From: Thermodesulfobacteriota bacterium
GTDB lineage: Bacteria; Desulfobacterota; WTBG01; JAGOGO01
Direction of reading: 5' to 3'
Assembly (NCBI GenBank): GCA_026625185.1
Contig: CP113000.1
Location: 1,035,622-1,067,621 of the forward strand
Length of the DNA stretch: 32,000 nt
Shown piece by piece: positions 10,014-14,653 of this stretch (position 1 is the first letter of the stretch; each line of letters starts with the position of its first letter). The notes below the pieces were generated by a model. The model saw only the letters and a program-made list of their open reading frames with translations, was not told the origin of the DNA and did not search any database. Made by a program: the position numbers and the translations under genes.

Positions 10014-10320
10014 TTGTTGATAAAATGGTTCATTACCAGACCTTTTCTACTGAAGGTATCGTAAGATTCGGCAAAATCTATCTGGGCCTGCCTGCCCACC
10101 TCCTTTCCCAATACCTCAACTTCTCCGAGAAGGGTCCAAATCCCTCCAATATCTTTCCTCCCTGAATAAATCGAAACCTAATACGATAATGCCCATAACC
10201 AGCAGGATATGAATGAATCCGCCCAACGTGTGCCCGCTCACTAATCCCGGCAGCCAAAAAAATACGATAATCACAAATACGGTCCAAAGCATGCTCGACT
10301 TCTTTCTGAGAACAGAATTC
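10014..10320. repeat. diverged 307-bp direct repeat, copy 1 (paralogue of 14347-14653)
   Basis: Alignable by eye over its whole length with 14347-14653. It is near-identical over TTTGTTG.TAAAATGGTTCATTAC...CTGAAGGTATCGTAAGATTCGGCAAAATCT and more diverged elsewhere. Confidence 0.75.
10116..10292 (-). CDS. lmo0937-family small membrane protein (copy 1, 58 aa)
   Basis: From ATG 10292: MLWTVFVIIVFFWLPGLVSGHTLGGFIHILLVMGIIVLGFDLF... This is the two-helix pattern with G-x-GG-x-IH-x-LL typical of the lmo0937 family. The ORF-track version (10340) starts further upstream. Confidence 0.6.
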   Translation of the reverse strand: MLWTVFVIIVFFWLPGLVSGHTLGGFIHILLVMGIIVLGFDLFREERYWRDLDPSRRS

Positions 10321-10409
10321 GTCCACCCATTTAAGTTCACTTTGGGGGGCCATTAAGACTTTGGTTTGATTACACCTAAAAAATATTAAAAATGGCAAAA
10401 AGGTAAATA

Positions 10410-11428: not shown

Positions 11429-11780
11429 TGGTTTATTTATTATAACAATTAGGTTTCAGGACACTAAAAGCCACTTCCACAGAGATAAAAATTTAGGTAA
11501 TTCTCAAGATTTTGCCAGCAAATTACAGATATACTGAGCGGGCATAATAAACAATGAGTGTTTTCTGTTATTATACCGAAACTGAGATGTTTAATGTGAA
11601 AGGTTTATTGCATTTTTCACAGCGGAATTCTTATGTAGGCATCGTATGTTTTCCTTTTTCAATTGAGCCTTTTAAACTCTTATACTGTAAAAACAAAATA
11701 ACTATCGGGTATCGATCCGAACTTGTACCCGTAGGTGAAAGTTATGGCCTTCCAGCCAGTTCGATAAGTTGTCAGGGCTG

Positions 11781-11898
11781 ACCAGCAGAATTTAGTTTTT
11801 ATGTTTCCGTAAAAACCAAATTCTGCTGGTTGCCTCCTTTAATCGTGAAGAATATAAAGAGTTATCCACAACTCAACCCTAAACGAAAAAGGAGGCAA
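11781..11898 (+). promoter_or_regulatory. structured transposase leader: long hairpin plus anti-Shine-Dalgarno pairing
   Basis: Hairpin ACCAGCAGAATTTAGTTTTT 11781-11800 / AAAAACCAAATTCTGCTGGT 11811-11830 (20-bp stem, one mismatch, 10-nt loop). TTGCCTCCTTT 11830-11840 is the perfect reverse complement of AAAGGAGGCAA 11888-11898, which contains the transposase SD. Confidence 0.5.
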
Positions 11899-11899
11899 A

Positions 11900-12943
11900 A
11901 TGAAATTTTACAACCAGCTACACCAATATTACTGCGGCATCGATCTGCATGCCAGAAAAATGTACGTCTGTATTCTCGATCAAAAAGGCAAAACAATGGT
12001 TCATGAAAACATCAAAACTGACCCTGAACTGTTTTTTCAACTGATTTCTCCCTATCTGGAGAATATCGTTGTGGGTGTTGAATGCGTATTCTGCTGGTAC
12101 TGGGTTTCAGATTTGTGCGCCAAGCATAAAATCCCTTTTGTTCTCGGTCATGCATTATATATGAAAGCCATCCACGGGGGAAAGACGAAAAATGATAAAA
12201 TTGATTCCTACAAAATTGCCTTATTGCTTAAAGGTGGAAATTTCCCGACAGCCTATCCGTATCCGGCTAAGTGGCGTGCTACCAGGGATCTATTAAGACG
12301 GAGGATGTATCTGGTCCACAGGTGCGGCGAATTGGTCGCCCATATCCAGAATACCAATACGCAATACAATCTGCCGGCTTTTAATAAAAAACTCTCTCGC
12401 AAATACAACCATGCCGGCGTGGCCGAACAGTTTGAGAATCCGGAAGTTCGCAAAAGCGTCGAGGTGGATCTTGCCATGATCGCATCCCTCAATCAAATCC
12501 TCAATCAGCTCGAATGGCATATCGAAAAAACCGCTGAACAGCATGATTACCACACTCTGTACTTACTCCGGTCGATCCCCGGTGTCGGCCTGATCCTGGC
12601 GCCGGTCATGCTTTACGAAATTAAAGATATCAAACGCTTTCCCTCAGTCCAGGATTTTTCTTCCTATGCCCGGTTGATTAAACCGGTCAAAACATCAGAC
12701 GGTAAATGGGCCGGTAAATCAAACGGCAAAATCGGAAACCACCATCTGAAATGGGCATGCAATGAGGCGGCGATCCTCATGCTCAGGGAATCCGAAAAAG
12801 CCAAACAATATGTGGCAAAACTCGAACGAAAATACAATAAAAGTAAAGCCCTGGGTATCTTCACCCACAAAATCGGCAGAGCGGTTTATTTTATTCTCAA
12901 AAACAAAGAGGCTTTTAATATGGAAAAATTCTTCAGCCAATGA
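11900..12943 (+). CDS. IS110 family transposase (DEDD/RuvC-like recombinase)
   Basis: N-terminus YYCGIDLHARKMYVCILDQKGK (the first catalytic Asp context of IS110-family enzymes). C-terminal Transposase_20-like region SIPGVGLILAPVMLYEIKDIKRFPSVQDFSSYARL...GNHHLKWACNEAA. SD AAAGGAGG upstream of the ATG. Confidence 0.95.
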   Translation: MKFYNQLHQYYCGIDLHARKMYVCILDQKGKTMVHENIKTDPELFFQLISPYLENIVVGVECVFCWYWVSDLCAKHKIPFVLGHALYMKAIHGGKTKNDKIDSYKIALLLKGGNFPTAYPYPAKWRATRDLLRRRMYLVHRCGELVAHIQNTNTQYNLPAFNKKLSRKYNHAGVAEQFENPEVRKSVEVDLAMIASLNQILNQLEWHIEKTAEQHDYHTLYLLRSIPGVGLILAPVMLYEIKDIKRFPSVQDFSSYARLIKPVKTSDGKWAGKSNGKIGNHHLKWACNEAAILMLRESEKAKQYVAKLERKYNKSKALGIFTHKIGRAVYFILKNKEAFNMEKFFSQ

Positions 12944-12953
12944 TCATGGGAAT

Positions 12954-13090
12954 AAGGATGCCAGCTTGTTGCCTAACTGAGATTCCATAGGCGGACCTGA
13001 TTCTCTTTATTTACTGCTTGCAGCTTGACTGCTAAAAAGAGTGGGCCAAATGCCTCTAAGCTCATGGCGCTTGATTGGCGGCATCCTTTT
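12954..13090 (+). ncRNA. candidate IS-encoded guide RNA domain (bridge/seek RNA-like), directly 3' of the transposase stop
   Basis: A 9-bp closing stem AAGGATGCC 12954-12962 / GGCATCCTT 13080-13088 encloses ~117 nt with several internal hairpins (for example CTCTTT 13002-13007 / AAAGAG 13036-13041, GCCAA 13045-13049 / TTGGC 13075-13079). It ends in a T-run to 13090. No covariance-model test was possible. Confidence 0.3.
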
Positions 13091-13494
13091 TCCCATTTAC
13101 CGATAAATGATGCTTGATCTGACGATCTCCGTGTTCTGCCCCTTGCCCGAGTGACAACCTAACTGGATGGATCTCTGATCCAAGCCGCTTTACTTTGACT
13201 GCGCCGGGATAAGGGTACCGAAATATATTCTGAAGCTGCCCAATGACAGCAAACTGATTGTCAAAGAGCTTCTTTGGTATTTCAGTAAATCTCTATAGAT
13301 GTTTGGTGCAGACGCGCTTTAGCGTTCTGACCCTCGCGACCGAAGACGCAAGTCCGAACCATAGGGTCGTTTGTCAAGGCTTCATTAACTTTTGGACGGA
13401 TAATATCTTTTTTATTTCTCTCTTTCCGATCTACAGGAGGAGTTTTCCCCTGACAACCGAAGGCCATATAGAGGTTGGGCTGACTCATGCGTTG

Positions 13495-14211
13495 CTAATC
13501 GTTTCTGAAGTCATCTAGTTCTTTCTTCTCTGCCTGCCTTTGCAGTATGTCTCGCACAGCCAAGGCCGCCCTGTCTTCTGCGGCCAGTCTGCTAGCAATG
13601 TCAGCAATTGCTGTCTCATAGTCTGCTTGAAACTTAACCGGAACTTTGCAGTGCACATCATGTGTGAATTCCGCCCAGGCGTCTTGAAGTTTCGTTCGAA
13701 TCTGGATTTCGCAGATCATTGTCTCCTCGACGACAGTGCGTCGCTTTCTGTAGGTCTTGACACGATCAAAAGAAACGTCTGCCAGAAGGTGTATCGCTCT
13801 GTATCCAGTGCGCTTCGGATCTCTGATGAAGTCTTCCAAAGACCGCGGTTTGATGCGGAACTGCTTAGTAGCCTGAATGTATTCGAGCATTCCGTAGCAA
13901 TCATCAACAAACCAGCAAATCACTCTGGCGCCAATAAGGTCTGTGATAACTTCGGTCGGATAGTGAAACATGGGCCAGTCCGTCTTCTCGAGTTTCCTGA
14001 GAAAACTCGTCAATGACTTAACCCTAGCGTCCACGTTAACAGCTTCACGAGGGAGCTCGTTTTCTACTGTGTAAGCCGAAGCCAGGCGACCGAGCCTGAT
14101 TTTGAGAACTTGGCTTATCGATTCCAATTCCTCGCCGTACCAATGGAAAAATCTAAGGGTTCTTTCGGTTAGGAAGTCTATCCGTTCCTTTCGGGTTCTG
14201 TACTTGGCCAT
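13495..14211 (-). CDS. RelA/SpoT-domain protein (stand-alone small alarmone synthetase homologue)
   Basis: Synthetase-domain motifs occur in the canonical order: RVKSLTSFLRKL, DLIGARVICWF, GYRAIHLL, CEIQIRTKLQDAWAEFTHD. There is no HD hydrolase, TGS or ACT domain; 238 aa. Confidence 0.85.
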   Translation of the reverse strand: MAKYRTRKERIDFLTERTLRFFHWYGEELESISQVLKIRLGRLASAYTVENELPREAVNVDARVKSLTSFLRKLEKTDWPMFHYPTEVITDLIGARVICWFVDDCYGMLEYIQATKQFRIKPRSLEDFIRDPKRTGYRAIHLLADVSFDRVKTYRKRRTVVEETMICEIQIRTKLQDAWAEFTHDVHCKVPVKFQADYETAIADIASRLAAEDRAALAVRDILQRQAEKKELDDFRND

Positions 14212-14346
14212 GTCTTATTCCCACCAGGTACTTGCGAATGTCTAACAAGGGATGACAGGAAGAAAAAATAGGAAATAAATCAATAGTTAACTTTCTCTTG
14301 TTGTCCCCTGTTATATCCTGTTATGGTAGCAAGACCTCTCTGTAAA

Positions 14347-14653
14347 TTTGTTGGTAAAATGGTTCATTACGAAACCTTTTTTCTGAAGGTATCGTAAGAT
14401 TCGGCAAAATCTTTCTTGACCTGCTGACCACCTCCTTTCCAAATACCCTCACCTTCTCCGGTAAGGGTCTAAAGTGCTACGATCCTTTTCGTCCCTGAAA
14501 AAGTCGGACAGCTAATACGATTATTGCGAGGGCCAGCAGGATATGAACGACTCCCCCCATCGAGTAGCCACTTAACATTCCCAGACCCCACAAAACTAAG
14601 AGAATCACACTTATGGTCCAAAGCATGGTCGACTCCTCTCTGAGGACAGAATC
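14347..14653. repeat. diverged 307-bp direct repeat, copy 2 (paralogue of 10014-10320)
   Basis: See copy 1. Same length, same orientation, and it contains the second lmo0937-family ORF. Confidence 0.75.
14477..14626 (-). CDS. lmo0937-family small membrane protein (copy 2, 49 aa)
   Basis: Absent from the ORF track because it is under 60 aa. ATG 14626 is preceded by the SD GAGGAG. Translation: MLWTISVILLVLWGLGMLSGYSMGGVVHILLALAIIVLAVRLFQGRKGS. Confidence 0.6.
   Translation of the reverse strand: MLWTISVILLVLWGLGMLSGYSMGGVVHILLALAIIVLAVRLFQGRKGS

Follow-up and report, generated by a model that had tools for sequence, protein, structure and literature searches.

The borders of an insertion sequence (IS) beside a RelA/SpoT gene in a Thermodesulfobacteriota bacterium (GCA_026625185.1, contig CP113000.1, positions 1,035,622 to 1,067,621) carry what reads as a palindrome split in two, with near-copies of both halves in the long non-coding right end of the element, and the question raised by this locus is what these repeats are and what directs the element to its site. 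A preliminary description of the window (the whole 32,000-nucleotide stretch that was analysed, to whose first letter the coordinates refer) had offered two readings, sub-terminal inverted repeats (IRs) as in the IS1111 subgroup or a pre-existing host palindrome interrupted by the IS, and had taken the short internal matches as possible guide segments of a non-coding RNA; all ten strings that it quoted were found where it had placed them. The overall best explanation, which we hold with considerable confidence, is that the segment 11740-13472 represents an IS110-family element with the layout of IS1111, truncated at its left end; it is a member of the clade of ISGsu4 and ISMahy12, is predicted to be RNA-guided and inserts into the attC sites of integron cassettes (Table 1).

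Table 1. Positions in the window of the element, its predicted guide RNA and the adjoining host sequences.
Feature	Position	Strand	Basis
3' remnant of DnaJ-domain gene, about 15 codons + TAG, fused to IS left end	11702..11747	-	
8-bp homology AGTTATGG common to dnaJ gene and IS left end; deletion joint	11740..11747	+	
Left sub-terminal IR, 10 bp	11743..11752	+	Inverted-repeat search, relatives
Left 'inner half': subclade motif in leader, no family IR	11768..11777	+	Relatives
Leader hairpin (11781-830) and anti-Shine-Dalgarno (11830-40) pairing with ribosome-binding site (RBS; 11888-98)	11781..11898	+	Predicted fold
IS110-family DEDD recombinase, 347 aa	11900..12943	+	Open frame; serine aligns with IS621 catalytic serine
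Domain A of guide RNA: rod with covarying pairs, contains target loop 1	12946..13096	+	Predicted fold
Target loop 1, 5' guide GCCTAAC-T, reads attC R'' (RYYYAAC)	12971..12978	+	Covariation with sites
Target loop 1, 3' guide, reads core + attC spacer bases	13064..13073	+	Covariation with sites
Domain B of guide RNA: donor multiloop, arm of loop 2 (13140-215) and basal stem	13106..13387	+	Predicted fold
Loop 2, 5' guide-like ACCTAAC, paralogue of loop 1	13157..13163	+	73-RNA alignment
Loop 2, 3' guide-like CTTTACTTTG	13188..13197	+	73-RNA alignment
Donor guide for left end, partial discontinuous match	13221..13231	+	Covariation with ends
Donor guide ATAGATG for right end + core	13295..13301	+	Covariation with ends
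-35 box (CTGACA for family TTGACA) of promoter predicted at circle junction; forms core of right 'inner half'	13450..13455	+	Relatives
Right sub-terminal IR (13459-68); element end TAGA at 13472	13459..13472	+	Relatives
attC R'' GCCCAAC + one base, sole remnant of cassette's attC	13473..13480	-	Comparison with L231-L234
RelA/SpoT gene cassette, ORF 14211-13495, core site GTTAGAC 14246-14240	13495..14246	-	

The recombinase scored above the cut-off of PF01548, PF02371 and NF033542 (a DEDD RuvC-like domain plus a C-terminal domain), and the right non-coding end of 532 nt, compared with about 167 nt on the left, gives the long region 3' of the gene that is typical of IS1111 elements. For comparison we assembled 160 related loci and then 40 more. 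Relatives at 64-96% identity start TGATA(A/C)TAGTTATGGCC and finish GGCCATATAGA, which defines the full element boundaries, and identical copies within one genome have flanks that are unrelated beyond these same boundaries. Ends were counted as anchored patterns with one mismatch allowed, flank divergence providing independent evidence for the boundaries, and the related elements in the counts given here and below share descent and are not independent of one another. The terminal extensions of relatives are 10 bp on the left (8 without the core) and 4 bp on the right, of which the left extension is deleted in the window copy. The genome holds this one copy of the element plus one 57% paralogue with different ends. 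A search against Rfam returned only weak miRNA-like matches, on the leader hairpin. In relatives with a short leader, the left repeat itself (GGCCTTCC) stands opposite an RBS ending GGAGGCC, at least 8 of 9 positions being complementary in 47 of 119. Among single relatives, one (L016) has a right end without the -35 box and is otherwise complete, and another (L040:4058-4270) has about 195 bp of its right end duplicated in tandem, donor guide included.

Both pairs of border repeats are reverse complements, as the preliminary description had reported, and both extend to 10/10, but only the outer pair proved to be a feature of the family. The outer halves (11743-52 and 13459-68) were common to more than 100 relatives with unrelated flanks, lying 10 bp in from the left terminus and 4 bp in from the right one. 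Of 96 complete elements, 94 had an outer IR of 7-11 bp, and in 63 it was 10 bp long, such that the proposed likeness to IS1111 sub-terminal IRs was borne out for these halves and not for the inner ones. The inner pair was at least 8/10 complementary in only 9 of the 96 complete elements. Its left half (TTGTC) occurred in 18 of 123 left ends, 17 of these belonging to a subclade of at least 86% identity, and its right half is the TTGAC box that was found in 104 of 106 right ends; in the window copy, a T-to-C change at 13450 and an A-to-G change at 11777 perfect the match between them. The inner pair was also considered as a symmetric binding site and rejected on its spacing (15 versus 1 nt) and poor conservation, and the left TTGTCA was rejected as an outward -35 because, by eye, no -10 lay at the correct distance.

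The flanks of the relatives indicated the nature of the target. Right flanks started T/G-GTT in 96 of 103 cases, with T (63) or G (33) as the base adjoining the right end among GTT flanks, and the first base of the left end was always T, identical copies included. The variable T/G at the right end together with the constant left-end T would put the cut on the attC top strand, immediately 3' of a core of two bases. Of 71 loci, 50 had an antisense ORF whose end lay no more than 70 nt from the joint, and 9 had a sense ORF starting there. When sites were rebuilt, the attC hairpin carried its extra base on the IS-side arm in 12 of the 12 that scored best; ORF orientation and extra-base arm together place the entry in the R'' arm, one base after RYYYAAC and antisense to the cassette. 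The relatives' genomes yielded no empty allele, and close homologues of the cassette gene supplied one. Homologues of the adjoining RelA/SpoT gene at 87-95% identity share the same 14 bases after the stop, followed by GCCCAAC and an intact 58-bp attC (L231-L234), and the uninterrupted palindrome that the preliminary description had proposed to look for in an empty site was absent. Wherever a contig with the exact cassette protein extended that far, the IS was present. Comparison of flanks and empty alleles thus showed a sequence-specific insertion without target duplication, one base after the RYYYAAC of attC sites and antisense to the cassette.

Several further observations concern these sites and their surroundings. 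In two relatives (L047 and L153) the right flank begins one base off (T-GGTT), which suggests occasional shifted insertion. A 94% allele of the same cassette (L229:1976-2038) reads GCCCAACC, then ATCA, then the remaining attC; on that strand the IS left end finishes with the same four bases, ATCA, which may be a footprint of imprecise loss, seen in one study only. Upstream of the cassette gene, a long imperfect hairpin ending GTTAGAC (window 14240-14318, minus strand), also present in L229, looks like a degenerate attC of a preceding cassette. A diverged direct repeat carrying a small DUF5670 membrane-protein gene (window 10014-10340 and 14350-14653) flanks the stretch holding DedA, the IS and RelA/SpoT. 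The second clade element of the genome (57%; G000:C1:2868574-2870220; L007, L214) has both ends present, lies inside an attC, and has two loops and matching donor-guide changes; integron-integrase-like pieces lie about 3 kb from it (2873332-2874634), and an integron-integrase-like gene in two frames, below the family cut-off, was found at G000:C1:2992856-2993438. Plasmid matches H16, H48 and H50 were by annotation unrelated to attC.

An alignment of 73 right ends gave a two-domain fold with many compensatory changes, 80-95% of cells being paired compared to 18-49% in slid controls, a comparison biased towards the structure, which had been derived from this very alignment. In domain A, 89% of cells were paired and 30 of 49 pairs showed double changes (slid controls 36-47% and 11-17). 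The 3' side of loop 1 is variable and ends TG, and the guides of this loop co-varied with 78 insertion sites (match score 381 compared to 318 +/- 8 permuted, above all 5000 permutations), with a median z of 4.9 when one site was taken per sequence cluster (22 clusters). In the window copy the 3' guide fits the probable target poorly, with only the -1 base plus a possible G-T wobble. For the ends of the element, ATAGATG is identical to the final five bases together with the core in 91 of the 100 loci, which include six variants of the end, and 7 of the 9 loci that depart from this allow a G-T pair. The donor guide for the left end makes the weaker case: the candidate segment agrees with the left end in 7 of its 11 positions. 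In L043, L057 and the paralogue of this genome the two change together, but the RNA does not track the variation seen most often in left ends, A/C at position 6. Comparison across loci assigns target matching to loop 1 of the predicted RNA and end matching to the donor guides of its multiloop.

Loop 2, in domain B, stands in the same frame as loop 1, is equally conserved and is recognisable in relatives near 55% identity. It tracks insertion sites weakly (cluster z about 2), and where the two loops differ at -3, the flanks follow loop 1 in 33 of 59 cases and loop 2 in 9 of 59. The possibility that loop 2 reads the R' arm of attC was discarded, the 12 best-scoring sites all being in the R'' arm.

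The left joint of the window copy is unusual. Unlike 123 other left ends it lacks the outer 7 bp, TGATAAT, and it is fused to the remnant of a DnaJ-domain gene, which translates as GHNFHLRVQVRIDTR and a stop, compared to GIHNFHLLVHVRIDA in the intact gene of a same-genus genome (L012). An assembly artefact was ruled out by a contig of a second study, which spans the joint without differences. The 8-mer AGTTATGG occurs both in the left end and in a dnaJ-type gene, and once the element had entered the RelA/SpoT cassette, a deletion between these two occurrences took away the outer 7 bp, what remained of the attC and the greater part of the dnaJ-type gene; slippage would explain it most simply. 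Since the copy lacks the left donor site and the -10 and has a mutated -35, it is probably without a working donor site and junction promoter, and immobile. An intact DnaJ-domain paralogue (64% to the L012 gene) of the gene whose remnant flanks the IS lies at G000:C1:928072-928755.

For intact members of the clade, a route of movement can be proposed from what is described for IS621, ISEc11 and ISKpn4. The ends would join into a circle, creating a TTGACA-18-GATAAT promoter, the recombinase would bind the RNA, and the attC-reading strand would be cut just 3' of the two-base core, where strand exchange would take place. Joined on paper, the ends do give TTGACA-18-GATAAT, the type of junction promoter known for IS1111 elements, and the circle junction had no match in 238 loci or in viral contigs. 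A cut 3' of the core fits the T/G base beside the right end being target-derived, as against the constant left-end T. Target-only RNAs and top-strand insertion have been reported (PMC11187229; 10.1101/2025.10.25.684509).

Other origins of the border sequences were weighed against this account. That a REP or terminator-like host palindrome was split by an IS of 1670 bp, with 13152-59 and 13371-81 as the guides, now seems extremely improbable: the strings do exist and lie about 25 nt from the RelA/SpoT stop, but the halves travel with the element, a promoter and terminator scan of the locus gave scores below shuffle level and no terminator-like site, and the empty alleles already refute it, the empty site being the 58-bp attC with no repeated host palindrome. 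The flanks are also not repeated in the genome, unlike the sites of REP-targeting elements of the ISPa11 or IS621 type. The two internal segments fared no better as guides in any of the three checks that had been suggested for them, conservation, loop position and shuffling. TGACAACC at 13152-59 was present in 2 of 73 relatives and mostly paired, and 13371-81 lies within the basal stem of the predicted fold; when the right end was shuffled with dinucleotides preserved, it had one or more exact 8-mers in common with the borders with P = 0.57 and one or more 11-mers with one mismatch with P = 0.29, which upholds the caution, voiced from the start, that each match could be chance. The GGGCTGAC repeat (11775-11782 and 13477-13484) was less expected (shuffle P = 0.035); its left copy arises from the single A-to-G at 11777, close relatives having GGACTGAC, and the right one belongs to the host cassette. 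What does hold is the broader proposal of a guide RNA, encoded in the right end, that matches flanks and ends; its true guides lie elsewhere than in the segments proposed. As to the left joint, an enzymatic origin is unlikely, whether through an integron integrase crossing over at G/TT or through the element's own recombinase joining two target-like sites by means of two target loops. The 8-bp homology does contain GTT, on the other strand it reads CCATAACT, which is 6/8 like the loop guide and ends exactly at the family cut position, and the genome has integron-integrase-like pieces, albeit below the family cut-off; however, this is a single case compared to 123 canonical left ends, the 3' guides fit neither partner, and an ordinary microhomology deletion yields the same joint.

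The role of loop 2 is the part of the account on which we are most tentative. The reading that we place first, itself no better than plausible, is that loop 2 is the target loop of a complete bridge RNA formed by domain B, with relaxed pairing at junctions during copy-out, and that domain A is a separate target-only RNA that chooses new sites. We put this ahead of a second-address role, in which one RNA with two target loops would give wider cover of variable attC, loop 1 being used more; this is rather doubtful. In its favour, loop 2 keeps TAACTGGA and TTGA across the 73 RNAs, AAC-TG is kept in most relatives near 55% identity, the number of sites agreeing with loop 2 in at least 6 of 8 positions is 8 where 4.2 were expected (p = 0.026), and five sites fit loop 2 better by at least 2 (cluster z about 2.0). 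Yet the best-of-two score was not raised by loop 2 (396 compared to 393 +/- 2.7, p = 0.17), there was no excess at sites matched poorly by loop 1 (p = 0.10), 5' and 3' preferences were uncorrelated (rho 0.11, p = 0.34), and the guides of the two loops are correlated by descent. It is similarly doubtful that loop 2 is a vestige or a protein-binding scaffold only, pairing with no DNA: its upstream guide bases drift in distant relatives, where loop 1 stays G(C/T)CTAAC, and its covariation with flanks is weak, but the bases complementary to the invariant GTT and core are retained exactly over large distances. A more far-reaching possibility is that the clade hard-wires two working target loops per transcript, one in a stand-alone target module for new attC sites and one in a full bridge RNA with its own target loop, a proposal that we regard as speculative. 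If it is true, one recombinase could read two addresses or join two target-like sites, and the window copy may owe its left-end deletion to such joining or reading.

Among named elements, the transposase comes closest to that of ISGsu4, which falls in the same clade (60% identity across the 77 residues compared at its N terminus), and to that of ISMahy12, which looks similar by eye only (both PMC11187229 supplement). Literature searches, with most subscription journals outside their scope, found nothing on the target or RNA of these two elements and nothing relevant on a two-target-loop RNA or the target of the clade. The IS1111-attC group (ISKpn4, ISPst6, ISPa21, ISPa25; PMC11187229, PMC3001079) likewise has sub-terminal IRs and a 3' non-coding guide region and likewise inserts close to the attC 5' end, in antisense orientation relative to the cassette. 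The ISKpn4 transposase, however, aligned with the window recombinase only over 82 aa at 26%, whereas IS1111-attC members share 46-90%, and on such pairwise comparison the element is placed outside the ISPa21/ISPst6/ISKpn4 transposase clade, though it appears to work like IS1111-attC elements. Insertion is 1 nt after AAC here and about 6 nt after it for ISKpn4 (about 5 nt apart, by eye), and the right end is about 530 nt with two target-like loops, compared to about 260 nt and an 82-nt seekRNA in the IS1111-attC group. The 10-bp IR of the window copy fits the 7-17 bp sub-terminal IRs of the IS1111 group, whose terminal extensions are 7 (or 6) bp on the left and 3 bp on the right, as against 10 and 4 bp in the relatives here. 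With the IS621 bridge RNA (PMC11208160) the predicted RNA shares four guide segments overlapping at a two-base core, with the long guide 5' of the short one; unlike IS621, the RNA lies 3' of the gene, the core is CA/CM with a tolerated second base, and a further target-like loop is present. Donor guides fall in a multiloop, as reported for IS1111 orthologues. A possible functional likeness is that to the two-RNA pathway of CazIS110-1 (10.1101/2025.10.25.684509), in which a target-only RNA stands beside a full bridge RNA and insertion is mostly into the top strand; there both RNAs come from one loop, whereas here two diverged loops are encoded in tandem.

The split palindrome is itself ordinary, consisting of end repeats and chance matches, and it is the clade that matters. 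At least 8000 database proteins belong to it, and its attC targeting is apparently separate from that of the clinical IS1111-attC group, with another position and a guide for the sole well-conserved part of attC. The conserved loop 2 offers a natural system for asking whether target-only and full bridge RNAs have different jobs, for which an intact relative is a better test object than the damaged window copy. Insertions of this kind break cassette recombination sites, and may freeze cassette arrays in anaerobic environmental bacteria.
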